From an uncultured Nitrososphaeraceae archaeon (GTDB lineage: Archaea; Thermoproteota; Nitrososphaeria; Nitrososphaerales; Nitrososphaeraceae), in the NCBI GenBank assembly GCA_963837175.1, contig CAWIMJ010000050.1:1-64000 (forward strand): a DNA stretch of 64,000 nucleotides, given 5' to 3'. Below, piece after piece: positions 7,036-25,789 of the stretch. The stretch's first letter is position 1. Every line of letters begins with the position of its first letter. The position numbers and the translations under genes were made by a program. Below the pieces are notes generated by a model. That model was given only the letters and a program-made list of their open reading frames with translations, was not told the DNA's origin and searched no databases.

Positions 7036-7269
7036 CTACCAATGTTGAGTTTGGTGCTGTCTTCCTACCCTCTGTCCAGTATTAACGGTTGTCTCTCTTG
7101 GTGGAGTGGGGCTATCATTTTCGTGTCCGGGATGTGATCTGATGTGGAACCAGTATTGCGAATTTGTGATTGTATTTTTACAAATAGGACAGTTTGCATA
7201 TCCACATTTATGATAGCCTATAAAGTTAGGATGAATTGTTAAGCCACATTTATCACATTTATTAGTCAA
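7036..7269 (-). CDS. Small zinc-finger protein (probable TTG start at 7269)
   Basis: CDKC...HKC and CPIC...HIRSH motifs. Confidence 0.6.
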   Translation of the reverse strand: MTNKCDKCGLTIHPNFIGYHKCGYANCPICKNTITNSQYWFHIRSHPGHENDSPTPPRETTVNTGQRVGRQHQTQHW

Positions 7270-7818
7270 AATATATTCAGTTTTGTTTAACATTAAGTAC
7301 CATAAGGATGTATTGGCTAGACCAAGTCTGTTTTGTGAACATTTCTTCACAGCGGTAGCCCTAGATTATTGTTTCTCTGTTTTCTCTGCAGGGGTAAAGA
7401 AGGTTTGGGTAACTCTACCAATTTATGTTCTAAACAGCTATAATAATAGCAAGAAGGTTTAATAAAGTATAAGGAGTAGAAAACAAAAAATAAAATGCCA
7501 TTGATTATGCTAAATTGTAAACTTGAAATGTGTTCCTTGATTACAGACAAAGGTATCCTGGCGTGCTCACTAGTAACAGTATCTTCACCTGGATCCCTAA
7601 TTGAATAATCAACACCTTCAAAACCAGCAATTCTATCAGTTCTTCTTATTCTATTGATTTCATCATTTCAGAGTAAAACCTGCCAGGACATCATTTTGAG
7701 CTGAATCTTTTAGATTATACTCAGTTGCATTTGCAGGCAGCAAGTAACTGCCATTTATCGTGTATTTGTGGATTATTGAGCTATAATTTATGTACCATCT
7801 TTCATAATCTATAATAAT

Positions 7819-9363
7819 ATGAAAAGAAATATCAGATTGGATCAGTGTATTGCTATACTCAGAATAGTTTTACTTTCAATTCTGGTTTTAACTTCTATAT
7901 CTAGCGGTTATTATTCTTCCTTATTACTACCTTCTGCTAGTGCATCAACATACGTGCCGACACTGAGTTATAATACTGATGAGGGTACACCATCAATCAT
8001 TAGCGATCTCACCTTAAAAGTAGAAGAAGTCGTAACAGGATTGGATCTACCTACTACTATGGCATTCTTAGGTCCTAATGACATATTAGTTTTGGAGAAG
8101 AATAAGGGTACTGTTCAGAGAATCATTAATGGTACAATGCTTCCAGAACCACTGCTCGATGTTAATGTCGCGACTTCTGTTGAGAGATGTATGTGTGGAA
8201 TTGCTACTGTATCGAAGAATAGTAGTAACATTGGGTCAACATATGTATTCTTATATTTTACTGAAGCGCAAGTAACAGATAGTGAGGATGTCATTCAAGG
8301 AAAAGATCCATTAGGTAACCGCCTTTATAGATATGATCTAGATAATAATAATAATAAACTGATAAATCCTGTACTTCTTCTTGACCTCCCTGGTACACCT
8401 GGTCCACGTCATAATGGTGGTGCTATCATGGTTGGACCTGATAATAACATCTATGTTCCTATCGGAGATGTAGATGGATCTGGTATGGGAGAGGCTTCGC
8501 AAACTAAAGCTCAGAATTATGTTAATGGAATAGAACCAGATGGCAGGAGCGGTATCCTTCGAATTACACAGGATGGTAGACCTGTAGGAACTAGTGGTGC
8601 TGCTGGTGGTGTGGGTAGTAGCAGTAGTGGCGGTGGCATTATTGGTGATTCTTATCCTCTAAATCTATACTATGCATATGGAATACGAAACAGCTTTGGA
8701 TTTGATTTTGATCCTGTAACAGGAAAGCTATGGGATACAGAGAATGGTCCGGGTGATGGTCCAGGCGAAGGAGATGAGATTAATTTGGTAGAACCTGGAT
8801 TTAACAGTGGATGGCAAGAAGTGCATGGTATGGCTTCTATTGCTATTGCTGCGGATAACAATAATAATGATATTAACCCTAATGATTATTTAGTCGATTT
8901 TGAAGGAAAAGGAAAGTATAGTGATCCTGAATTTGCATGGATAGAGACTGTCGGCCCTACTGCATTAAAGTTTCTTAATTCAGATAATAAATTAGGAACA
9001 CAATATGAAAATGATATGTTTGTAGGAGATGTTCATAATGGAAACATATACCATTTTGACTTGAATGAAGCTAGAACAGATCTAATTCTTGGTGGTGGAT
9101 TGCTAGCTGATAAAGTGGCAGACTCAGATTCTGAACTAGAAGAAGCTGGTGGCGGTGCTGGTATAATATTTGGCAAAGGTTTTGGAGGAATCACCGATCT
9201 TGAAGTCGGACCAGATGGATATTTCTATGTTGTTTCGATTGGCAAAGGTGCAATATACAGAATAGTACCTGGAGTCAATGATGTTGATAGATCTATAATA
9301 GATAAAGACGATGAGCAAGGTAATAATGATTATGATATTGGATCAGAAGATGATGACGAGTAG
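7819..9363 (+). CDS. Secreted PQQ-dependent sugar (glucose/sorbosone) dehydrogenase-family beta-propeller
   Basis: N-terminal hydrophobic signal; GLDLPTTMAF, HNGG, YGIRNSFG, ENGP, DEIN..PGFNSGW motifs; acidic tail. Confidence 0.9.
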   Translation: MKRNIRLDQCIAILRIVLLSILVLTSISSGYYSSLLLPSASASTYVPTLSYNTDEGTPSIISDLTLKVEEVVTGLDLPTTMAFLGPNDILVLEKNKGTVQRIINGTMLPEPLLDVNVATSVERCMCGIATVSKNSSNIGSTYVFLYFTEAQVTDSEDVIQGKDPLGNRLYRYDLDNNNNKLINPVLLLDLPGTPGPRHNGGAIMVGPDNNIYVPIGDVDGSGMGEASQTKAQNYVNGIEPDGRSGILRITQDGRPVGTSGAAGGVGSSSSGGGIIGDSYPLNLYYAYGIRNSFGFDFDPVTGKLWDTENGPGDGPGEGDEINLVEPGFNSGWQEVHGMASIAIAADNNNNDINPNDYLVDFEGKGKYSDPEFAWIETVGPTALKFLNSDNKLGTQYENDMFVGDVHNGNIYHFDLNEARTDLILGGGLLADKVADSDSELEEAGGGAGIIFGKGFGGITDLEVGPDGYFYVVSIGKGAIYRIVPGVNDVDRSIIDKDDEQGNNDYDIGSEDDDE

Positions 9364-10136
9364 TAACGCTGATGGTGGAGATAGTGATTTTGTATGGAAT
9401 TGTTAGAATATTCTGTAATGACAAGAAATTCTAATATTAATACGGTTGTTTATTGAATTAAGAACTTGAAGCGATGATTTAAAACAGTGTTTACGATTAG
9501 AAAAAGTCTTCTGATAGAACTCAAACATTCCTATGAATAGAGGAGAACTGGAAACGAAGAGACGTGTTCTTACAGACAGGAATAATAATCCATTATCTGT
9601 TGTTACCACGACATATGAAAATACATATGAAAATACACTTGAAATGAAGACTCAACTATAAAGAACATTAGACTCATTTATTGAAATTACTCCTTCCATA
9701 TAAAAACAAAATCTGTCTCTGCAAAGAATAGAATTATTCAAAGAGTGTAAATATATTAAATTAAAAGACGACATGATACGTATAACAAGACCTTAAAAAC
9801 AGAATAAATAATTCAGACCAACTGAGGAAAAACTGCCAGAGAATGGATATCATACAGCAACAAAATGGAATCTATAGAAAGAGGAGCCTTATGATTCAAC
9901 AAGTATCAAGAAATTGATGTAAATATCAAAATAAAACACAAGAGAACGCTATCTCTGTTTAGTGCACATATTTGCTTGTGCTTTATCTCTTTTGCAAATG
10001 ATACTGCTGTAGAAAAAATTATAATAATATGTATAAAAATATATTATAATATTTTAGATAGATATAATTTTAATATAAATTCTTTAATTTCTCCAATGCT
10101 TAGTTTTATTGAATATTAGAATCTTTTTTTCCATTT

Positions 10137-13897: not shown

Positions 13898-14551
13898 TCA
13901 TTTTGCAATAGCCTTTGGAGGAGACTCAAAGAGAACCTCTTTTATAATATGCTCTGTTACTTCTTTGACTCCTTGACCTGTCTTGCAGTTCACAAAGACA
14001 TAGGGTTTGATTCCTCTTACAGCCTTAGCATCTCTTTCCATAATCCCAAGATCTGCTCCAACATGAGGTGCAATATCAATCTTATTTATTACCAAGAGAT
14101 CACAGCTTTCTATGCCCAGACCTCTTTTTCTTGGATATTTATCGCCGCCAGAAACATCTATGATATAGATAAAATAATCAGCCAGTGCAGGGCTAAACGT
14201 GGTAGTAATATTGTCTCCTCCACTTTCAATTATAATCAAATCGAGATCATTATGTTTTTCTTCCATCTCCTCTACTACCGATATATTCATTGACGGGTCT
14301 TCACGTATAGCTGTATGAGGACATCCTCCCGTTGCTAATCCAATTACTAAATCTTCTGCCATCAACCCCTTTTGTGTTGCTAAGTTTTGTCTCATTCTAT
14401 CTGCATCCTCTCGAGAGACTACATCATTTGAAATTATACCTGCCCTATAACCTCTAGATGATAGTATAGGAACGACTTGCTCTATAAGCATGGTCTTTCC
14501 TGAACCAACAGGACCACCAATTCCTACTCTAGGAATTCGTTTAGCACTCAT
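13898..14551 (-). CDS. ureG: Urease accessory GTPase UreG
   Basis: GGPVGSGKT, GGCPHTAIRED, ESGGDN and NKID motifs. Confidence 0.97.
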   Translation of the reverse strand: MSAKRIPRVGIGGPVGSGKTMLIEQVVPILSSRGYRAGIISNDVVSREDADRMRQNLATQKGLMAEDLVIGLATGGCPHTAIREDPSMNISVVEEMEEKHNDLDLIIIESGGDNITTTFSPALADYFIYIIDVSGGDKYPRKRGLGIESCDLLVINKIDIAPHVGADLGIMERDAKAVRGIKPYVFVNCKTGQGVKEVTEHIIKEVLFESPPKAIAK

Positions 14552-14569
14552 GCAAAAAGTACGGTGCGA

Positions 14570-15274
14570 TCAAGTAATAAACATTTTTGAATCCAATTTT
14601 TCATGTGAAATCTGAATAATATCTATTTCTGGAGCAAACTGCCACATACTTATTAACGGTCTATCAATGTTGTTTATCATCGTATCCAAAATAGTGGGTT
14701 TCAATTCATGAATGATTCTCTGGCCTTCAAAATGCTGTAACATTCCTAATCTTAAGGCTGCTCCAACTATGCTTACTGAAAAAGTATAAAGCATCATAAT
14801 AGCAGCTTTTTGCTTCGGTATCTTTAGAGCGTTACTTGCAACAGCCATTACAGTAGAATATACTCCTGCAGCTTGTCCTTGTTTTATTGCTTGTTGATAC
14901 TGATTCATTAATTCATTATCCGTTATGAATGAGGTTAAGCATCTTAATAGCTGGGTACCTGATCTAGTAGATGCGTCTCTTATTTCCTTAACAAGTTTCA
15001 TTGCATATATTATTTGATCTACTTTTAACAATTTGGATAAATCAGATTTATAAGCACATTCATAGGCGTTTCCTAGTGCAGTACAATCTGCCGGACCAAT
15101 TTGGTGTTCTATATACACCTTAATCAGATCACGCAATTCATTTGCATCATTTATCTTCTTGCTATAAAATAACGTTTCAAGGCCATTTGAGGTAGTATAC
15201 ATACCAGTTGGAAAAAAAGAATCAGAAATCTGTAGTATACTTATTTCTTGCGTGTCCATCTTGTCAATGCTCAT
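14570..15274 (-). CDS. ureF: Urease accessory protein UreF (start ATG 15274)
   Basis: LQISDSFFPTGMYTTSNGLE motif and C-terminal HEKLDSKMFIT. Confidence 0.93.
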   Translation of the reverse strand: MSIDKMDTQEISILQISDSFFPTGMYTTSNGLETLFYSKKINDANELRDLIKVYIEHQIGPADCTALGNAYECAYKSDLSKLLKVDQIIYAMKLVKEIRDASTRSGTQLLRCLTSFITDNELMNQYQQAIKQGQAAGVYSTVMAVASNALKIPKQKAAIMMLYTFSVSIVGAALRLGMLQHFEGQRIIHELKPTILDTMINNIDRPLISMWQFAPEIDIIQISHEKLDSKMFIT

Positions 15275-15779
15275 GTATTTCTGTGCCTTCTTCAGGTTCA
15301 AAGACCATCTTTGTGTTATTAATTTCAAGGTGTCCAGCTATAGGTGCAAAAAGTTTCCTAAATATCTCCAGTTCACTATCAGCTTGAATTGGAAAGTAAA
15401 TTTTATTTCCTTCTAACTTTAGAGGACGATGTAGGTTTCCTATTGTATGACCAACTCTTACTGGTATTTCAATGATATCGTGGTCGTGGATGTTATCTTT
15501 AATTTCGATTACCGCCACATTCTCTGGTTCCATTTCCACTATTACCATCTTCTGTTCTGTTACCATAATAACATCGCCATGTCTTAGGCGTGTTCCTTGT
15601 GGAAGGATCAGGGCAATATCAGTGCCTTTATTAGATGTCTTTCTCATCCTGACTCTCTGTGACTCTAATCTGCTGATTTTAACTACTTCACAAATTTTCT
15701 TATAAGACATCTCTTTGTATTTTTCGTTAAGAGTGATATTCTTGTTTATATTTCCAATTATTGAATCAATTGTGATCAA
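15264..15779 (-). CDS. ureE: Urease accessory nickel chaperone UreE
   Basis: LRHGDVI and GHTIGNLHRP motifs; short His tail. Confidence 0.93.
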   Translation of the reverse strand: MITIDSIIGNINKNITLNEKYKEMSYKKICEVVKISRLESQRVRMRKTSNKGTDIALILPQGTRLRHGDVIMVTEQKMVIVEMEPENVAVIEIKDNIHDHDIIEIPVRVGHTIGNLHRPLKLEGNKIYFPIQADSELEIFRKLFAPIAGHLEINNTKMVFEPEEGTEIHEH

Positions 15780-15782
15780 TTT

Positions 15783-16157
15783 CTATCCCTTTTTCCTACT
15801 CCTTTTAATTGTCGATCTCGATCGACGAATCTTTTTTACTCCCTTAATCATTTCTAATAATCTTTGAGTATAGTCAACGAAGCCAAGATGATCAAAAGAC
15901 GATCTATCAACAAATGCAAAAATAAGCCCTCGATCTCCTAATCTAACCTTGGCGCCATTTTCAAATTTTTCAACAATGATGCAATTTGTAATCTTATGAT
16001 CTGGGTAATCAAGATTAAGGTGTGACGCAGGATCAATGAGCCCCGACATAGATTGAAGTTTACCTCCTGCAATGACTCCATGTCTTATTTTCGCTGGATC
16101 GATTACGATCAAGTTCTCATCGACGTTAGACTCCTCGACACAATGACGAATCAACAT
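15783..16157 (-). CDS. Uncharacterised protein inside the urease operon
   Basis: 124-aa ORF packed between the chaperonin (12-bp gap) and ureE (3-bp gap), same strand. Confidence 0.75.
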   Translation of the reverse strand: MLIRHCVEESNVDENLIVIDPAKIRHGVIAGGKLQSMSGLIDPASHLNLDYPDHKITNCIIVEKFENGAKVRLGDRGLIFAFVDRSSFDHLGFVDYTQRLLEMIKGVKKIRRSRSTIKRSRKKG

Positions 16158-16169
16158 TATTGTATATAA

Positions 16170-17726
16170 TCACCTTTTTATCTCTGATACTGCCTGATGG
16201 CTCAGATCTTCTGCTGCTAGATTTCTATCTATTCTTAAAACAGATTTAGCTATCTCTCCTGCAGCCTGAAGAGCCATCGTCTTAACCAATAAAGGATCAA
16301 GCACACCCTTTTTCCACATATCTACTACTTTGCCTGAATCAATATCAATACCAAAACCACTAGGCGATGCTTTTGCTGCCATAACCTTTTCTAATCCATT
16401 ATATCCCGCATTTGTTAGTATTTGGCGCATAATGCTTTCTAAAGCTGAAGTGACAACCTCTAATCCAACCTGTTCAAGACCCTTCAATCTCAAATTATTT
16501 ACTTTCTCTATGACATGCAATTCTGCAGAACCTCCACCAGCAACAACGCCTTTATTCAAAGCAGCTTCGGCAGCATTTACACCATCTATAGCAGCCCTCC
16601 ATCGCTCAAGAGATGTCTCTTTAGTTGTACCAGATACAATCAGTGTAACCATATTTCTACCCAAGCCATTCTCTATGTATATTACTCCATTATCTTCATC
16701 TTCATATATATGACCTGCTCTGCCTAAAATATCTGTTTTTTTTAGATCTTCGATTGTTCTTACAGTCTTAGCTCCAGTATATCGTGACAAATATTCAATT
16801 TCTTCTGTTGATATACGGACGGCAAATATCTTTCTTGCCACAAGAAGATCCTCTATAACCTGATCCACTTCAGGTGATGCTATCAGGATGGTATTTGCAT
16901 CAGTTGCTATCATGGCATCTACTATTTCTTTTGATTTGATAACCCTATCATTTTCCATGCTAAGTATTTCTTCATACTTACTGTTGTCCTTAAGCCAAGA
17001 TTCTTTAATAGGTTTTAAATCTAATTTGGCAATCATGATCCTCGGTTCTTTTATTTCTAAAGGCATCTCGGGATCCATTCTTTTTCTTTCTAGGACTATG
17101 CCATTGATGGTCCTATCCTCCATATTGGTTCTTCTAATAACCATGATTGCCTTATCAAAGTTGTAGGAGCCATTATAAATCGCATTTTTTCCTACGGACC
17201 TCAGCGCTGCAATTACTAATGAGGAGAGTTTTTCTCCGTCGAGCTTTGATGATAGAGATGTCTTGATTATCTGTTCTAATTCAATATCATTTAGAGTAAT
17301 CTTATTGGCTTCTTTTTCCAGAAGCTGACATGCATGATTGACTCCGCTCTCTATACCTTCTACAACTTTTGTTGGATGAACACCTAGTTCCTTGATGAGC
17401 CTTTTGCCTTCCTTTATCATTTCAGCTGCCATTACTACCGCAGTTGTTGTCCCATCACCAACTAATTGCTCCTGTCTTTCCGCTATCTCTACAATCATTC
17501 TTGCAACTGGATGTATCGCCCTTAGAGAGAGCAAAATTGTTACACCATCATTTGAAACATGTCTATTCATAGCTTGATCTATTAGTAGCTTATCTAATCC
17601 CTTAGGCCCCAGCGTAGTTCTTACCGTATCAGCCACAGTCATCACCGCATTGGAATTGGACTCTAATGCATTGAACTCAATGTTCTCGGCCATGGGCCTC
17701 CATACACCGTAATTAGGATTTGACAT
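16170..17726 (-). CDS. Divergent Cpn60/TCP-1 chaperonin (thermosome-like, group III-like signatures) embedded in the ure operon
   Basis: [40 protein letters not shown] and LRID motifs. Confidence 0.92.
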
Positions 17727-17845
17727 CAGACATTACTCTCTAATACAGATCAAAATAAAGATATACCAAAAAAGATAGAAATTTTCCAGCCATAGTTGTT
17801 GCTGTGGCCGTTGTTGTTGTTATTACTGCTCTTGTTGTTAAACGG

Positions 17846-19573
17846 CTATGCCATGAAGTACCTTTGTGCTGAAGAGAGTTCCTTTGCAGGATCTACAGTT
17901 GCGATTTGACCGTCTAATTTTACTTCGTATGTCTCTGGGTCTATTGTTATCTCAGGAGTCTTGTCGTTCCACATCATATCCTGTTTGCTAATACTTCTGC
18001 AATTCTTAACGGGTAGAATCACTTTTTCCAATCCTAATTTCTCGGGGACTCCTAGCTCTATGGCTTTCTTTGACATAAAAGTAAACGACGTGCTCTTTAC
18101 TGCCTTTCCTAATGCTCCAAACATTGGTCTATAGTACACTGGCTCTGGAGTTGGAAGAGATGCATTTGGATCTCCCATAATTGACCATGCTATGAATCCT
18201 CCCTTAAATACCATCTTAGGCTTTGCAGGGAAGAATGCCATTGGATACATAACTATATCTGCATATTTTCCTACTTCAAGTGATCCTAGATAGTCTGAAA
18301 CACCGTGTGTTATCGCAGGATTAATTGTTGTCTTTGCAATGTATCTTTTTGCTCTGAAATTGTCATTATCGCCTGTCTCCTCTCCATATCTGCCCTTCAT
18401 CTTCTTCATTTTGTCTGCAGTCTGCCATGTGCGTATTACTACCTCGCCTATTCTCCCCATTGCTTGACTGTCCGACGAATACATACTCAATACTCCTTCA
18501 TCATGTAAAACATCTTCTCCAGCAATAGTTTCAGCTCTTATCCTTGACTCTGCAAATGCGACATCCTCCGGAACTGCAGGGTTAAGATGGTGACAGAACA
18601 TCAACATGTCAAGATGCTCATCTACGGTATTTACAGTGTATGGTCTTGTTGGATTGGTTGAGGATGGCAGAGCGAATTGTTCTTCAGCAATCTTCATAAT
18701 ATCTGGAGCATGACCGCCGCCTGCGCCTTCTGTGTGATATGTATGCACTGTTCTACCATCAATAGCATTTATAGTATCTTCTACGTAGGCGCATTCATTT
18801 ATTGAATCTGTGTGAATGGCTAGCTGTGTATCAGTAGCGTCTACCGCTTTTAGAGAAGCGTCTAATACTGCTGCAGTTGTTCCCCAGTCTTCATGATCTT
18901 TGAGTCCGCATGCACCTGCTTCTATCTGCTCCATTTGGGTTGCCAACGATGGATGAGAGTCATTCCCCTTTCCTAAAAATCCCCAGTTCATAGGTGTATC
19001 TTCTATTGCCTCTAACATTCTACTCATGTTAAAGACTCCTGGTGTACAGGTTGTTGCACACGTTCCATCTGCTGGTCCAGTTCCCCCTCCTATCATATTG
19101 CAAATGCCATTACTGATGGCATCTACGTACTGTTGTGGGCATATATTGTGAACGTGTGTATCAAAGTGTCCTGCAGTACAAATAGTGTGTTCGCCAGCTG
19201 TAGCTTCAGTGCATGCTGAAACAATCATCTTTGTATTTACTTTATCCATTACATATGGGTTGCCTGATTTTCCAACTCCAGCTATTTTGCCATCCTTTAT
19301 TCCGATGTCAGCTTTAACTATTCCTAGCACCGGATCTACAATAACTGCATTTGTAATTACATAATCAAGAGCGCCATCTGCATTTGTGACGCCAGAAGCT
19401 TGCGCCAAACCATCTCTTATTGTCTTTCCCCCACCGAACACAACTTCGTCTCCTGGTGTTATAAGATCTTTTTCTACTTCTATCATTAATTCCGAATCTC
19501 CAAGTCTGATTTTGTCTCCAGCAGACGGTCCATATAGATCTGTGTACTGCTTACGAGTTAACTTTAGAACCAT
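17846..19573 (-). CDS. ureC: Urease subunit alpha
   Basis: [33 protein letters not shown] and SSDSQAMGR active-site motifs. Confidence 0.98.
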
Positions 19574-19590
19574 TTCTTTATTCTCTCCTC

Positions 19591-19959
19591 CTATGCTCCC
19601 CTAAATCCAATGGTTCTGGCCTTCTCAAGTGAACTATTCTTTACTATTGATGATTTCAGGCTACCCATCGTTAGACCATTGAACCCATATACAATACGTT
19701 TGCCTCCTAATTCACATAATTCTACCTCCTTTGAATCTCCAGGTTCAAATCTTACTGAAGTACCTGATGGAATATTCAATCGGAATCCATATGCTTTTTC
19801 ACGTGGAAAATCAAGTGCTCTATTTACTTCAAAGAAGTGTGTATGTGAACCAACCTGACAAGGTCTATCGCCAGTATTCTTTACAGTAATGTTGACAGTT
19901 TTTTTATTTCCATTACAAGTAATGGGATTTGCTGATAATGTATATTCGCCTGGTGTCAT
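19591..19959 (-). CDS. ureB: Urease subunit beta
   Basis: [19 protein letters not shown] and [15 protein letters not shown] motifs. Confidence 0.97.
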
Positions 19960-20036
19960 TGTTCTATGAACAACCTCCTTCTTCCCAATTTTTTTTTAAT
20001 TCGAGATTTTGATTTTTTAATTACCATTTTTGTCAC

Positions 20037-20339
20037 CTATTGAACAGGATCGTGCACTGTTACTAATTTGGTGCCATCAGGAAATGTGGCCTCTACTTGA
20101 ACTGTATGTATCATTTCTGATATCCCATCCATAACATCGCCTCTCTTCACTACTGTTCTTGCCGAGCTCATGAGGTCAGCTACCGTCTTTCCCTCTCTAG
20201 CTCCTTCTACAACATAATTTGCTATATAAGCAACTGTCTCAGGGTAATTCAGTTTTACACCTTTTTTCTTTCTTCCTTCGGCTATTTGTGCAGCAGTCCA
20301 TATCATCATTTTATCAATTTCTCTTGGTGCTAACATCAA
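20037..20339 (-). CDS. ureA: Urease subunit gamma
   Basis: KLNYPE, EGAREG and [19 protein letters not shown] motifs. Confidence 0.97.
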
Positions 20340-20471
20340 TTTTCTAATATACCTCTGAGAGTACAGTAAACCTGAATTATTTTAAAGTTCAAAATATTAA
20401 CTTATATATAAAATAATATTTGCTTCGAAACGACTTAATAATACTGACAATCTTATGGAGCTGACTATTTT

Positions 20472-20489
20472 TTAGTCGACATCGACTAA
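20472..20489. promoter_or_regulatory. 18-bp palindrome TTAGTCGA-CA-TCGACTAA, copy 1, upstream of ureA
   Basis: Perfect 8-bp arms; identical to 22734-22751; a TATA-like TTTATATATAA (minus strand, about 20402-20412) lies between it and ureA. Confidence 0.75.
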
Positions 20490-20491
20490 TT

Positions 20492-21082
20492 TTATTCCAA
20501 CTTACTCACATTGAATGGGAGGACAACGCTCAGCCAAAAATGCATTTGTTCAAATTTTCCATTTTTATTCACTGGCAACGTAAAATCATATATCTTATTC
20601 ACTGTCTTAATTGTAAGAAAATTTTTCATTATCATTGTACCAACCATATTTGTTACCGTAGTTTCTATTCCCTTTCTAATAATAAATTCGTGTATATCTG
20701 AATACCAGATATAGTAGTTGGATCTATCTCTTTTTATTATGTCTGCTGGAGGATTCCGATACTGTTTCATCACATCGGATGGCTTTATTTTTTTTGATAA
20801 TACCATATATGGAAATGGCGCTATTCCCGCAACATAACCCATGTCTACAAACTTTTTTAGAAAATTCTTTTTGCTAACTATTATTCTAGTGGTTGTAAAG
20901 TCAAGAGAAAAATTCCTGCTCCATCCTCCTTTTTCCTCAGAGCTTAACCTTAGAATATTTTCTTCGAAATTTTTCTTTTTACACCACAAAATAAAGTCTT
21001 TAATTTTTTCTGAATCAGACTTGGAAGATAATTTGTTGTCCTCTGCTAATTTTAAAAACTGCTCAAATTCAAATGGTTTCAT
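20492..21082 (-). CDS. Hypothetical protein of the urea island (possibly PH-like fold)
   Basis: 196-aa ORF co-oriented between the urea transporter and ureA. Confidence 0.7.
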   Translation of the reverse strand: MKPFEFEQFLKLAEDNKLSSKSDSEKIKDFILWCKKKNFEENILRLSSEEKGGWSRNFSLDFTTTRIIVSKKNFLKKFVDMGYVAGIAPFPYMVLSKKIKPSDVMKQYRNPPADIIKRDRSNYYIWYSDIHEFIIRKGIETTVTNMVGTMIMKNFLTIKTVNKIYDFTLPVNKNGKFEQMHFWLSVVLPFNVSKLE

Positions 21083-21183
21083 TAGCTTAGTGACATTATA
21101 AATAATTTGTATGTAAAGGTATATTTTTATAATCTATTTAATAAAAAAAGAAGATGGAAACATAATTCCTCGCTTTTCTTCTC

Positions 21184-22299
21184 CTAGGGTGCCCGTGACC
21201 ATCCAATTCCTGCCGGAATGTTTGTAAAACCAGATACTCCTAGTAAGAATATCCATGCAGTAAATACAAAAGGTCCCGTCAGAGCTGGTAAACCCCACAT
21301 TCCAAAAAATCTTTGTAGAGCTGGCATTACAATTACACTACATGCCACTGTAGCAAATACAGCTAGCAGAAATGATTGGAGAGTGAGGGGAATGAAACTG
21401 GTTAGAGCTATCATGACAAGTACCTGATTAAATCCATGTAATCCCAATCTTATTTCTGCTGTTGGCAGTTTTGTAAGGATTGCAAGGGCTACTCCTATAC
21501 CTGAGCCTAGAAGTGCCATAAGGCCAGCCAAATACAGCGATGAGAATTCATTCCATTGTGCTGTGTAAGCGTTTGTATACCATGGTCTAGCCTGTCCTGT
21601 AATGATTGGTGCAATTTCAAATGCAAGTGTAAGACCAACTACCCAGAAAATTCCTGTTTTCCAATTCTCAACAAATGTAACTTGTGATACCCCTTTCAAA
21701 GTAGCTATCATAAATTCTTTTGCAGTCCATTTGAAATTTTCAACTTGAGTTTGAATTGGATTGCTACTTTCCTTAATCAATTCTTCCTCAGGTGGAGATG
21801 TAGGTAGTGCTGGCCATATATCGTGTCCAAATCTCTTGCTAGCATACATTAAAGCCCAAGTAGTAAATATAAAGGAAGATGTAAAGCCCGGTATAGCCCA
21901 TTTTGCTCCCTGAAAGAAGGTATCTCCCATAAGATGCGCCATCGCCATCCAAGTCACCGCAGTAGCTGCAGCACCAAAAACCGATAAGAAGAAGGTAGCT
22001 TTATTTGGTTTTACAAAAGGACCAGACCAAAGTGCCATGCCAGTCAAAATAGAGTTGTAACCAAATAATCCAAAAGCTACAAGTCCATACGGGGCACCTA
22101 AAAGGATGGCCGTTCCAGCGCCTATTAGACCCGATAACACCATCATTGCGCCTGCCTTTCTTGATGCAAGAAATACTCCTGCTAGTATCAATATTCCAGT
22201 TATTGGAGAACTGAATAAGGGCACTTCCGCAATTCCGTTGAATAGAGTAAAAAAGAAGTCCAATATGGGCTCTCCGGTAGCATAATTTGCGACTGTCAT
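21184..22299 (-). CDS. Urea transporter (UT/Yut family); start ATG 22299
   Basis: Duplicated UT motifs GLFGYNSIL/GLHGFNQVL, GIAEV/GVSQV, PGFTSSF/PALTGPF; multiple transmembrane helices; next to ure genes. Confidence 0.92.
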   Translation of the reverse strand: MTVANYATGEPILDFFFTLFNGIAEVPLFSSPITGILILAGVFLASRKAGAMMVLSGLIGAGTAILLGAPYGLVAFGLFGYNSILTGMALWSGPFVKPNKATFFLSVFGAAATAVTWMAMAHLMGDTFFQGAKWAIPGFTSSFIFTTWALMYASKRFGHDIWPALPTSPPEEELIKESSNPIQTQVENFKWTAKEFMIATLKGVSQVTFVENWKTGIFWVVGLTLAFEIAPIITGQARPWYTNAYTAQWNEFSSLYLAGLMALLGSGIGVALAILTKLPTAEIRLGLHGFNQVLVMIALTSFIPLTLQSFLLAVFATVACSVIVMPALQRFFGMWGLPALTGPFVFTAWIFLLGVSGFTNIPAGIGWSRAP

Positions 22300-22733
22300 G
22301 AAATTTCCTTCTGATGAAGTATTCTTTAATGATTTGTAAATTATATTCATTTATTAACCGATTATATTTCCTTCTTTCAACTGCTCATTAAAATATGAGA
22401 CAAAAAGGAGAAGATTTGCAAAATGAGTTTGCGTGACGTCGTACATGTCCCTTTTCCTTTTAAATTGAGATAACTTTTTATTGTATTATAAGATGATCGC
22501 ATGAAAGGTTTTTGTTGCTATAGTAATAACTATCTCAACATTTATTCGTTAATTCTATTGGTGATGTATTAGTTTTGGTATGCACCCCCAAATCAAAAAG
22601 ATGATATTAATAAAAATCGTATTTTTATATTAAGATCATTTCGAGATGTTCTATTGACCCACTTATTGGTGATGAGTTAGATAATAATTTTATTGTTAAT
22701 AGACTTATTCTTTAATCTTACAGTCGGAATTTA

Positions 22734-22751
22734 TTAGTCGACATCGACTAA
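22734..22751. promoter_or_regulatory. 18-bp palindrome TTAGTCGA-CA-TCGACTAA, copy 2, in the divergent intergenic region upstream of the urea transporter
   Basis: Exact copy of 20472-20489. Confidence 0.75.
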
Positions 22752-22789
22752 AATACTTAATCTTTTTTATCCATCACGTTATACAATAC

Positions 22790-22826
<37 letters not shown>

Positions 22827-22908
22827 ATCAACAAGAAGAAGCAATTTTTCCTCTAATTTAATAAATATCAGTTATATTATCCTTCATATTAAAAGATAGT
22901 GATAATAA

Positions 22909-23500
22909 ATGACGTCTGGCAAATATTTTAACAAAGGCGTAAAGGCATTAGATTCCCCACATATAGGCCATGTTGTAAGAGAAACTGACGAAAAAATAGT
23001 AGTATTTGGCGGTGGAGATGACAGATATGACATACCAAAGTCTGAAATTCAGCAGGTTGGTGGCAATGTCCTTATTGATCTTCCTCTACATGAAATAGTA
23101 AAGAAGTACAAAGTAAGTCGTCAAGAACCTTTGCCAACAGGTAAGGGAACACAAGATCCATGGACCCGGCCTGAGAACGTAGATCTCGCTAGTTATGAGA
23201 AGAAATATCCAAAGTCATTATTTAACAAGGGCGTTAGAACAAGGGATGAAGAACATATCGGACACGTAATGAAGGAAACTGATGATAAGATCGTTGTTTT
23301 TGGTCATTATGACTATAGATTTGATATTCCAAAATCCAAGATAATAGGCAGCAGGTAGGAATGTTATTCTCGACATGGATTATCCGGAAATATTCAATTA
23401 TAGAGTAGATAGAAATGCACCATTACCAGGTGGAGAACCTATTGATACATTAGCAGATGAAGAACAAAGAACATCGACCGAGGTACCTAAAGAACAATAA
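22909..23500 (+). pseudogene. Tandem-repeat PRC-barrel-like protein with a +1 frameshift near 23347
   Basis: Two copies of FNKGV...HIGHV..ETD.KIVVFG...R.DIPKS. Removing one G gives KIIAAGRNVILDMDYPEIFNYRVDRNAPLP, which matches repeat 1 and ends at TAA 23498-23500. Confidence 0.75.
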
Positions 23501-24334
23501 AATGCTTAACTTCTGGAAGAAAAGCTGAAATCATTAAAGCACGGTGGAAGCAGGAAAGCATAGAAATATGTATATATGTATATATATTTTCAGCGATCAC
23601 GAACCTTTACTTATGAAGCGTTGCTTCCTATCTACCTATCAAAGACAATTGTATTTGTTGCTATTAATGTGAAGAGAAATATTTATCATGCATCTGCCAA
23701 TAAAGATATATCACTAGTTCTGAGAATCGAACTATGCCAGTTCCTTTTAATGCCAAATCGTCAAGTGAACTGACAGATGTGAGGCAGCGTCGATGACATT
23801 CTACGTAGAATAGCTTTATACAAGCAAAAGATATTTTATAACTAATATTTTATGAAATGAATTCATGTTGTGAGCGATCTGGCTTTATATTGTTCTTCTT
23901 AGATGATGTACTACTGTAGACGATTCGAATATGCATCTACCTGCGTTCATGGATAGATTATTTATAGCCTATAATCTTTTACTTGCCATCAACTTTCTCC
24001 TAGAGAAGACATTAAAAGTTTTCCTGATATTCAAGCAATTCTTTTACACTTCCCTAGGAGCAATATTGCTACAGAAATGGTTCGTACTGTTGGACCAGTA
24101 TCAGTATCTTATCTATAAGAATAAATGTAATCAAAAGACCAAGATAATAAAACTATTCTAAAATAGATATGAATACAATTTCAATTTCAATACATTACCA
24201 AACTGTGAAACATAAAGATAAAGAAAAATATGAAAAATATACGATACAAATGTGAGCCTCTTTAGATTATAATAAAACTTTTCTGTTATCATATAACAAA
24301 CAATAGAAAATAAATATGTATAACCTAATTTGCT

Positions 24335-24877
24335 ATGTGTGTACCGATGGTCGACAACGTCGACGAATTAATATTATCTACACTAAGTAAGAATTCAAAA
24401 CAACATACAAAAGAGATCTGGGAATTCCTAAGAGATCATGGATGCTATATAAGTGAGAAAGAAATAGAGTCGAGAATTAGCAAACTAGAAGATAATGGAG
24501 TAATAACAGGATACACTATATCTGTCGACACAAAGAAGGTTAAACGTCGTGTAATACGTATTGCACTTATTACGTTCAAAACATCCCAGCATCTTAGGAG
24601 TAGAATAGAAGGGTTAAAAAAATATCTTGCTGATGCACCTTTTGTAATCTTCTCCGGGAGGACCAGAGGTGGATATGATTGGATAATTGTCCAAGCTTTT
24701 CTAACAGAAGAAATTGCTGATGAAGAAAGTGACATATATCGAAATCTTTTTGGAGATATTATTCAGTCATACGGGGTTTATGACTTTGTTTCAATAAAAG
24801 AGCCGTCTTTCCATGCTCTTATGCATACCGACAAGGAATATAAGAAATTTCTCAATGAATGGATCCCGACATTCTGA
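24335..24877 (+). CDS. Lrp/AsnC-family transcriptional regulator
   Basis: DELILSTLSKNS...RISKLEDNGVITGYT HTH and a RAM-like C-domain (GRTRGGYDW). Confidence 0.88.
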   Translation: MCVPMVDNVDELILSTLSKNSKQHTKEIWEFLRDHGCYISEKEIESRISKLEDNGVITGYTISVDTKKVKRRVIRIALITFKTSQHLRSRIEGLKKYLADAPFVIFSGRTRGGYDWIIVQAFLTEEIADEESDIYRNLFGDIIQSYGVYDFVSIKEPSFHALMHTDKEYKKFLNEWIPTF

Positions 24878-24906
24878 GAGGGTAGGTAATGTATTATATA
24901 GTTTTT

Positions 24907-25789
24907 TTATTGATTCTTGATGAATTTTCGGCTTGAATTTTTGAAACGTATGGTATCGTCAATCATGGCATGCACCTTTAATCTTAATCCCATCAAAAAA
25001 TTGGTCATTTCTGTTCTTTTATCGGGTTCAATAGTGGTATTAACTTCTTCAATTAGGTTATCCATTCGCGCAAGAGTGATCTTGAGGGCTAAAGATGTCT
25101 TTTTAGTAATACTAAGTGATTTAGATAGAACCTTAGGCCGGAAGGAATCACATTCAGCTATATTAACCTCTTTCAGGAGTGATTTTACCTCCCTTATCTG
25201 TCTAACAGTCAAATTATTATTTACCACGTGATTCATTATTTCTATTCGAGAATCAAAAGGTAAATTGGTAAGTTCTAATGCTTGGCTAACATTCAGACGG
25301 TTGTTAAAAATTTGTTCTTTGATATTCATCAGGCAGCTTTAAGAGTTGAATTCGATGCGATACATATACTTCGCTCATACCTATCTTCTTAGCCAACTCG
25401 CTTACACCTCCCCATCCAAAGTCTATGACATATTTTCTGAACGCCTCTGCTTCCTCAATGGGCTCCATGGTCTTGCGTTGGATATTCTCAGTAAGTTGTA
25501 TTTCATACGCTTGTTTGTCTGACATTTCACGAATTTTACATGGAATAAAGCGCCATCTCAGGGACTTGCAAGCATGAAATCGCCTGTGACCAGCCACGAT
25601 TTCAAAACCATGGGCAACTGGGCGTATTAAGATAGGCTGGAGTAAACCGTGTTCTTTGATACTACTAACTAATGCGTCATCATCATCATTAGAGGACAAT
25701 GCGTGGAATTTTTCTCGTATAGCAAATTGAGATTTACGTATCATCTTCATTTCTATAGGTTCCACTATACTTGTATCCACAAATTCCAT
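24907..25789 (-). pseudogene. ParB/Spo0J-like protein (CTPase domain, HTH, helical C-terminus) split by a +1 frameshift near 25325
   Basis: SIKEHGLLQPILIRP, EIVAGHRR, ENIQR and HTH ELAKKIGMSEVYVSHRIQLL. Removing one base joins LPDE to IKEQIFNNRLNVSQALEL. Confidence 0.85.

Follow-up and report, generated by a model that had tools for sequence, protein, structure and literature searches.

A conserved palindrome at urea-use genes of ammonia-oxidising archaea as a probable site of a dedicated ParA-less ParB protein

The window analysed here, 64,000 nucleotides of contig CAWIMJ010000050.1 from an uncultured Nitrososphaeraceae archaeon (assembly GCA_963837175.1), holds a urease cluster, the gene of a urea transporter (UT), a divergent Lrp/AsnC-type gene (Lrp180) and a gene for a ParB-family protein. 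It also carries two identical copies of an 18-bp palindrome, PAL1 (20472..20489) and PAL2 (22734..22751). From comparison with related genomes, we consider it probable that this palindrome is the specific site of a dedicated ParA-less ParB, and that this ParB acts with its Lrp/AsnC partner as a module regulating the use of urea by ammonia-oxidising archaea (AOA). The genes under control would be urea transporters, either of the UT type or of the DUR3-like SSF type, and urease, joined in various genomes by P-II, nickel-uptake and Usp genes.

The palindrome, TTAGTCGACATCGACTAA as read on the + strand, has 8-bp arms flanking a 2-bp asymmetric centre, and its reverse strand deviates at the two central bases only. 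PAL1 abuts the stop codon of hyp196, a gene for a conserved protein; the ureA start (20339) is 133 bp downstream of this copy. PAL2 occupies the divergent spacer separating UT from hyp149, 384 bp from the former and 158 bp from the latter. A first-pass annotation of the window had described twin palindromes about 130 bp upstream of ureA and about 435 bp upstream of the transporter gene. Both copies are indeed exact, with no third in the window or the genome, and the longer distance is recovered when counting from an internal Met of UT, the first ATG (22350) being the one at 384 bp. Dinucleotide shuffles of the window gave an expectation of 0.02 matches at up to three mismatches, and the four strand-matches observed were reached by none of 100 shuffles. 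Throughout the home genome (3,810,681 bp in 58 contigs, 34% GC, the window belonging to contig C50) the two copies are the sole matches at up to three mismatches, and they are likewise the only exact matches to a degenerate 12-bp core, G[TC]CGAC[AG]TCG[AG]C. The extra GACTA/CAGTC half-sites that had been proposed beside each copy did not survive comparison: they show no conservation even among same-genus genomes, and 5-mers of this type occur about 2,700-2,800 times each in the home genome. A (TTA)n microsatellite stands at 22790-22830, 40 bp from PAL2. Metagenome contigs from other samples break at 22781-22841, where same-genus genomes carry different repeat tracts.

Across relatives the consensus of the site reads TTAG[TC]CGAC[AG]TCG[AG]CTAA. 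In the window's own family, 84 of 201 genomes match the palindrome at up to two mismatches, with exact copies in five genera, against about 28 of the same genomes (hand count) for a reversed control pattern; at class level, with at most one mismatch, 34 of 301 genomes match, compared with 2 for the control. The exact 18-mer is common to genera whose hyp196 proteins share only 36-40% identity. When loci in relatives were fetched by the motif, 28 of the 29 proved to be urease or UT loci, with the site between the hyp196 stop and ureA in 22 and upstream of UT in 6. Of 49 distinct regions upstream of ureA, 47 hold the degenerate core (one mismatch allowed at most) at -95 to -158, and of 34 upstream of UT, 22 hold it at -65 to -440. 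All 15 urease loci fetched via ParB or ureC instead of the motif have a site ahead of ureA, and 12 of the 15 have one ahead of UT. The motif therefore stands at orthologous urease promoters and is not scattered without relation to nitrogen genes, its other copies being at P-II, nickel-transporter and DUR3-like genes; both were checks that the first-pass annotation had set for itself. To judge from this comparison, the palindrome is a deeply conserved element under strong selection.

The pattern of conservation also speaks to the kind of element involved. In the half-site, T T A G T/C C G A C/T when read over 121 distinct sites, positions 4 and 6-8 are almost invariant and core identity is about 95-100%, those positions having been part of the selection. 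All seven potential stem pairs are kept in only 39 of the 121. It is base identity rather than pairing that is conserved, as would be expected for the site of a dimeric protein and not for a hairpin. The central CA/TG occurs in both orientations at ureA promoters of a single genus, and for this reason the palindrome appears to be functionally symmetric; a fixed orientation of the asymmetric centre relative to the gene, which had been entertained, is ruled out by the same observation. Comparison of the T/C variant at position 5 with lineage yielded no usable protein covariation, because one and the same genome can hold both variants. Between the site and the proximal TATA-like element the distance ranges from 16 to 92 bp, whereas that element, a conserved TTTAAAATA-like sequence, keeps a fixed place 39-50 bp ahead of the start codon in 35 of 37 promoters. 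The site thus lacks the fixed position at the BRE, TATA element or transcription start site that marks a classical promoter-proximal archaeal operator, and some copies lie 3' of genes or between convergent genes. Such variable spacing and 3' placement would fit a DNA-mobile factor better than an operator of fixed geometry.

The parB and Lrp180 genes form a conserved tail-to-tail pair that lies 1-16 kb from the site or the urea genes in three families, and the linkage of parB to urease loci that had been anticipated for relatives is therefore present. With this third check also passed, the proposal of the first-pass annotation, a ParB or Lrp regulon of urea use, is supported. Between genera, ParB orthologs are 52-67% identical and Lrp180 orthologs 63-87%. 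The comparison has some power in a second family (f2), which belongs to the same order as the window family and consists of small marine-type genomes, because urease is patchy there. By hand tally, ureC is present in 43 of its 44 ParB-positive genomes, and only 1 of its 98 ureC-negative genomes has a ParB match, a weak one. All 11 genomes of this family with the site at up to one mismatch are ParB-positive. The core was found in the spacer between ureC and the SSF transporter gene at eight of eight chosen ParB-positive urease loci, as opposed to none of 12 chosen ParB-negative ones; the former came from ParB-positive genomes without a site match at one mismatch or fewer, and the latter from the 39 genomes with ureC and no ParB. 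Five of the 12 negatives have the same ureC-SSF adjacency as the positives, and nine low-GC negative loci hold no core match anywhere in 15-19 kb. This contrast suggests that, in the second family, the element exists only where the ParB-Lrp pair exists. Upstream of parB itself there is one low-score site match (L126). The window family has two urease types: ureC at least 82% identical to that of the window goes with the ParB-Lrp pair and the palindrome, while a second type is 67-71% identical to it, and some genomes hold both.

Paralogs of the pair come with palindromes of their own. An Lrp2-ParB2 pair, its members about 40% and 45% identical to those of the first pair, adjoins the genes for cyanate lyase (cynS) and an FNT transporter in five genomes (G046, G008, G023, G011 and G035), and in all five the shared cynS/FNT promoter region carries TTAC[TC]CGGCGCC[GT]GGTAA, which has the same 18-bp architecture as the urea site and other bases at positions 4 and 8 (loci L085, 12900-13380; L087, 6034-6051; L088; L132, 1158-1175). 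Only matches with at most one mismatch were used for this palindrome, as at two mismatches it is about as frequent as its reversed control; matches in g15 between 3HCDH and DUF2070 genes look like chance and were set aside. The gene of a third clade, ParB3 (340-357 aa), is accompanied at a distance of 100-440 bp by a TTACYCGACGTCKGGTAA-like palindrome in four of four genomes (G124, G148, G049 and G077; loci L128, 856-2036; L129, 1355-2569; L130, 6016-7494; L131, 6065-7237), and no Lrp-like neighbour was seen at these four loci. Genomes G035 and G077 are flagged as unpublished. The recognition helix reads KSEQYVSS in ParB2 and ParB3 and differs by two substitutions from the KSEEYVSH of ParB1, the ParB of the urea loci, and the sites of ParB2 and ParB3 share the base at position 4, tracking their shared helix substitutions. 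Over these three clades, the covariation of helix and operator is consistent with ParB reading the DNA. A conserved open reading frame (ORF) of 112-115 aa lies between the Lrp2 and ParB2 genes at the cyanase loci, and the neighbours of ParB3 are varied (glycosidase-like, amine oxidase, hydrolases, one P-II). The home genome encodes a further ParB paralog, 41% identical over 253 aa, on contig C34 (67501-68250).

The ParB protein itself (24907..25789, - strand) has a CTPase-fold N domain, a helix-turn-helix (HTH) domain and a predicted C-terminal helical hairpin. The N-terminal family PF02195 matches the N-part encoded in the window at E 3e-20 and an intact ortholog at 1.3e-22, and it also matches ParB2 and ParB3; the central HTH family PF17762 matches at E 1.5e-17. 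The intact 299-aa ortholog scores 127.5 bits against TIGR00180, whose cut-off is 58.45. The nearest sequence matches are to Noc and Spo0J, with E values of 1e-31 to 1e-28 (Noc 7ng0 at E 1e-31; Spo0J 6sdk and 1vz0), and a Foldseek search with the model of an ortholog returned the ParB-parS complex 6t1f (TM 0.79), the KorB-KorA-DNA complex 8qa9 (TM 0.75) and also 7nfu. AGHRR is present in 26 of 27 ParB sequences and ENxQR in 26 of 27; we take GHRR to be the box II (GxRR) and ENxQR the box III nucleotide-binding motif. By these matches, ParB is canonical in its N and HTH domains, and the first-pass annotation was right in naming a ParB-family gene with a GHRR motif and no parA neighbour, since the neighbours are Lrp, GATase and deoxyhypusine synthase genes. 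A ParABS partition system would have an adjacent ParA and a ParA-binding motif in ParB; besides the missing neighbour, the motif [LFI]G[KR]G[LFI], as defined in the available part of an archaeal survey (PMC12704722), occurs in none of the 27 sequences. The short palindrome expected near the gene of such a protein is found by co-occurrence, in that the three ParB clades have three related 18-bp palindromes nearby. Compared with an intact ortholog from the same genus, the window copy of parB has one extra base at about 25323-25326, which breaks its reading frame into two overlapping ORFs (25304-25789 and 24907-25329). Because contigs X1, X5 and X15, from two DNA metagenomes of different studies and one metatranscriptome, are without the extra base, the frameshift is probably an assembly error or a private mutation and not a feature of the population.

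Lrp180 (24335..24877, + strand) is convergent with parB. Its assignment as an Lrp/AsnC gene in the first-pass annotation stands on divergent sequence similarity and fold, and finds no backing from Pfam, where no match was obtained at E<=0.01. It matches LrpA in the Protein Data Bank (1i1g) at E 6.7e-6 and the NCBIfam LrpA model at E 5.4e-8 with 32.9 bits, below the cut-off of 250. The model of an ortholog has helices at 6-19, 25-34 and 41-53 followed by a strand and helix order of E-H-E-E-H-E, the arrangement of an HTH and a RAM domain, and in Foldseek its top 38 or so matches are all Lrp/AsnC proteins (E 1e-8 to 1e-5). By its predicted fold, Lrp180 is a genuine Lrp/AsnC protein. Its recognition helix is acidic (SExEIESRI, with three conserved glutamates), and it bears a C-terminal extension.

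As the binder of the palindrome we favour ParB over Lrp180, with fair confidence, because Lrp180 has been lost or has decayed in lineages that keep ParB and the site, because the Lrp-less ParB3 has its own related palindrome, and because the distance from site to promoter varies. Lrp180 was not found at E<=1e-3 in three genomes that are 97-99% complete (G059, G038 and G105), only longer, 30%-identical proteins stand in its place in G129 and G137, and in the complete genome G232 it is a decayed remnant with three stops; ParB and the site are kept in all six. A genome with Lrp180 and no ParB was not seen among the genomes searched for the pair. The hyp196 protein was also considered as a binder and ruled out, as it is absent from second-family loci that still hold the site.

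Further sites extend the set of linked genes. The site lies 40-100 bp past the P-II stop in 12 of 20 extra-site loci, and likewise at L056, L067 and L083. It also occurs between a NikR gene and a ZnuA-type ABC operon (L050, L103 and L104), 104 bp upstream of a DUR3-like SSF symporter gene (L091), and, at 5 to 7 loci, in the gap between a Usp gene and a convergent topoisomerase gene. The urease cluster of the second family is organised differently, with the site between the ureC stop and a DUR3-like SSF transporter gene, and one of its urea loci (L099) includes a P-II gene and the gene of a NicO-like putative nickel transporter, the latter adjoining a second site. As far as gene order can tell, this second-family locus unifies the odd site contexts of the window family. 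At the same locus a second SSF transporter, fused to a Usp domain (7118-9430), directly adjoins the Lrp gene, and a GC-rich second-family genome has two tandem sites 45 bp apart between ureC and the SSF transporter gene (L105, 9194-9256). According to the available text of a study of Nitrososphaera viennensis and Nitrosopumilus piranensis (bioRxiv 10.1101/2023.08.04.551995), the strongest response to switches between ammonia and urea comes from ut, ure, glnB (P-II) and amt1, and AOA repress urea use while ammonia is available; that text names no regulator or cis element. The site-linked gene set agrees with this response.

We infer a mechanism in which a ParB dimer would recognise the palindrome through its HTH domains, after which the N domain would bind nucleotide, close into a clamp and move onto flanking DNA, like KorB, VirB and BisD. 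A clamp on the flanking DNA could then alter transcription of promoters at variable distance. The RAM-like ligand domain of the Lrp partner would probably supply an input of nitrogen status, or aid in fixing ParB at promoters, and the partner seems to be dispensable in some lineages. The sign of control might be repression with ammonia, or activation or anti-silencing on urea. Rather more speculatively, AOA might use ParA-less ParB clamps as substrate-specific regulators, with ParB1 serving urea, ParB2 cyanate and ParB3 another target, each loading at its own diverged, parS-like palindrome and sliding from there to promoters at variable distance. An Lrp partner sensing nitrogen status would capture or release the clamp as an archaeal counterpart of KorB-KorA, and the whole would explain why Nitrososphaera and Nitrosopumilus prefer ammonia to urea; we put this wider scheme forward only tentatively.

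Other explanations deserve consideration. Lrp180 could itself be the specific binder, as a classical metabolite-sensing regulator, with ParB an accessory or an unrelated neighbour. Among archaeal regulators of nitrogen and amino-acid metabolism, Lrp/AsnC proteins are the most common, and they bind palindromes. Lrp180 has the full HTH and RAM fold, equals ParB in most genomes in the tightness of its linkage to the site, and is the more conserved of the two; the paralogous pair on the cyanase side also holds an Lrp. However, this reading has to accommodate the six genomes named above that keep ParB and the site with Lrp180 missing or decayed, the related palindrome of ParB3 without an Lrp neighbour, and a recognition helix with three conserved glutamates. 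The site also has a GC-rich, conserved centre between AT-rich, degenerate flanks, which is unlike typical Lrp boxes, and its variable promoter spacing and occurrence 3' of genes ill suit a classical operator. We regard Lrp180 as an unlikely, though not negligible, candidate for the binder. It is distinctly improbable, in turn, that the palindromes serve, in the manner of parS, to organise or segregate the chromosome, with no role in transcription and with the urea genes as mere syntenic neighbours. ParB-family sites typically cluster near the parB gene, copies are few per genome and some lie between convergent genes, and a thaumarchaeal Spo0J/ParB has been read as a partition protein in the available text of a comparative-genomics paper (PMC9289680). 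However, there is neither a ParA neighbour nor a ParA-binding motif, and archaeal canonical ParBs are described as unlikely to act in segregation in the portion of the survey at hand (PMC12704722). ParB presence tracks urease (43 of 44), which argues against a housekeeping function; sites far from parB are still at P-II, nickel-transporter or SSF genes, the second family has the site at a different type of urea transporter, and a paralog stands at cyanase.

An unlinked, different transcription factor might also bind the palindrome, the ParB-Lrp pair being near the urea locus for some other reason. Co-occurrence is not binding, and in three genomes the site is present with ParB and Lrp undetected. 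Yet the presence of the site in all eight ParB-positive and none of the 12 ParB-negative loci, and the fact that three ParB paralog clades each adjoin their own related palindrome, make this explanation very improbable. Finally, instead of being bound by a protein, the palindrome could work as a nucleic-acid hairpin that terminates transcription or affects RNA stability at the 3' end of hyp196, P-II or ureC. The stop codons of these genes directly adjoin it, and it could fold into a stem of 7 bp closed by a 4-nt loop (-7.5 kcal/mol, z -2.2 to -3.5). The poor retention of the stem pairs beside near-complete core identity (the core being part of the selection), the occurrence of both centre orientations relative to the gene, the position of PAL2 and many UT/SSF sites at no gene's 3' end and the dependence of the element on ParB leave scarcely any room for this idea.

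Several observations weigh against a ParB-bound palindrome and a ParB-Lrp urea module, beginning with the fact that all the evidence is comparative. In the second family, 39 of 82 ureC-positive genomes are without ParB, which makes the module accessory, and the eight positive and 12 negative loci compared there were hand-picked, mostly from single-contig genomes. The genomes are related, and counts overstate their independence. The three genomes with a site and no detected ParB or Lrp are G029 (94% complete, in 520 contigs), G010 (72%) and G362 (97%), and in G414 ParB lies 105 kb from ureC. The close linkage and higher conservation of Lrp180 belong here too, as does the restriction of the recognition-helix covariation to three clades. 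On the protein side, neither the window ParB nor its ortholog gave a Pfam match to the canonical ParB C-terminal domain; the predicted C-terminus is instead a helical hairpin (helices 213-250 and 253-289, pLDDT about 86-94). Box II has a His in place of the canonical acidic residue. That acidic residue matters for CTP hydrolysis, and the nucleotide handling of this ParB may differ from the canonical one.

The remaining features of the locus were assigned from ORFs, Pfam matches and synteny in relatives. The urease cluster (13898..20339, - strand) comprises ureA (20037-20339), ureB (19591-19959) and ureC (17846-19573), followed by a gene for a thermosome-like chaperonin (PF00118, 16170-17726), a 124-aa ORF (hyp124, 15783-16157) and then ureE, ureF and ureG (13898-14551) in this order. 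The chaperonin and hyp124 genes (15783-17726), between ureC and ureE, are kept in all examined loci of the window family and absent from the urease clusters of the second family. Between UT and ureA lies hyp196 (20492..21082, - strand), which encodes a conserved 196-aa protein particular to the window family; it has no Pfam or NCBIfam family match, its orthologs in relatives are 36-85% identical, second-family loci lack it, and in a protein atlas its matches are Nitrososphaerota hypotheticals only. UT (21184..22350, - strand) matches PF03253 at E 2.3e-52, in agreement with its earlier annotation as a urea transporter gene. The divergent neighbour of PAL2, hyp149 (22909-23358), holds this position in the window genus only; its product has two similar halves, and paralogs are present on contigs C57, C56 and C47 of the home genome. 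In the ureA promoter the putative proximal TATA-like element lies at 20378..20386 (- strand), and a putative distal one, TTTTATATATA, lies at 20403..20413 (- strand) between PAL1 and the proximal element and is conserved in many aligned ureA upstream regions. As weak hints of transcript boundaries, RNA contigs end at 20345 and 20327 near the ureA start, and at 21151, past the UT stop, in both runs. In two metatranscriptomes no RNA contig covers 22312-22914, which includes PAL2, or most of Lrp180, although contigs cannot prove absence.

A large part of the nitrification carried out by archaea in soils and oceans runs on urea. On comparative grounds, the palindrome and ParB are a strong candidate for the switch that turns urea use on and off in AOA, and the finding supplies the question of urea control with a precise putative operator, two candidate trans factors and a defined gene set. 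If the proposal is true, it would be the first functional assignment for 'orphan' canonical archaeal ParBs, and gene regulation by ParB clamps, so far a matter of plasmids and mobile elements in bacteria, would be extended to core metabolism on the chromosome and to the transcription machinery of archaea. The three pairs of paralog and operator also offer a natural system for studying the evolution of ParB DNA specificity.

Likenesses to known systems can be found for each component. The archaeal Lrp/AsnC regulators (FFRP: LrpA, LysM, ST1022) share the HTH and RAM fold with Lrp180, and members of this family sense amino acids including glutamine, as far as the entries 2efq and 9w4w of the Protein Data Bank report. 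Unlike them, Lrp180 scores under the thresholds of Pfam and NCBIfam, carries an acidic recognition helix as well as a C-terminal extension, and is always paired with a ParB. The NrpR-type nitrogen repressors of methanogens resemble the present case in having a palindromic operator tied to nitrogen-assimilation genes; their protein family, however, is unrelated to the ParB-Lrp module, and their operators overlap promoters. ParB/Spo0J with parS and Noc with its NBS sites are closest in sequence and likewise have few, highly conserved palindromes per genome, some of them near the gene. The archaeal ParB differs in being without ParA, without the ParA-binding motif and without the N-terminal extension; it tracks urease and is not universal, and its sites are intergenic at functionally related genes.

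VirB of Shigella and BisD of ICEclc, as far as the available accounts describe them, are ParA-less ParB homologs that load at sites upstream of promoters and act at a distance, as is proposed for the archaeal protein. These, however, are genes of bacterial plasmids or integrative elements that act against H-NS or in transfer competence, whereas the archaeal gene is stable, chromosomal, inherited across three families and tied to urea metabolism. In the KorB system of plasmid RK2, a ParB-family CTP clamp works with a clamp-locking co-repressor, KorA, according to the available text of PMC11790492. The archaeal pair shares with it a ParB-family CTPase-fold N domain and HTH, a short palindrome with AT-rich arms and a GC-rich centre as the putative site, a proposed action on promoters at variable distance, a small HTH partner encoded alongside, and the structural match of the ParB model to 8qa9. 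It differs in being chromosomal and not a partition protein, in having nitrogen-substrate genes as its putative targets amid a TBP/TFB transcription machinery, and in the predicted helical hairpin of the ParB C-terminal domain. Its partner is an Lrp/AsnC protein with a ligand-binding domain, no KorA homolog, and dispensable in some lineages. The survey of archaeal ParBs (PMC12704722) describes canonical HTH-bearing ParBs as scattered in archaea and rarely accompanied by ParA, and its available part makes no mention of Nitroso-, urea or Lrp. A literature search found no report of the motif or of a link between ParB and urease; supplementary files were outside the search and may hold relevant gene lists. 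Beside KorB, VirB and BisD, the ParB regulator module proposed here stands out as chromosomal, archaeal and dedicated to metabolism, with an Lrp partner and with operators specific to each paralog.

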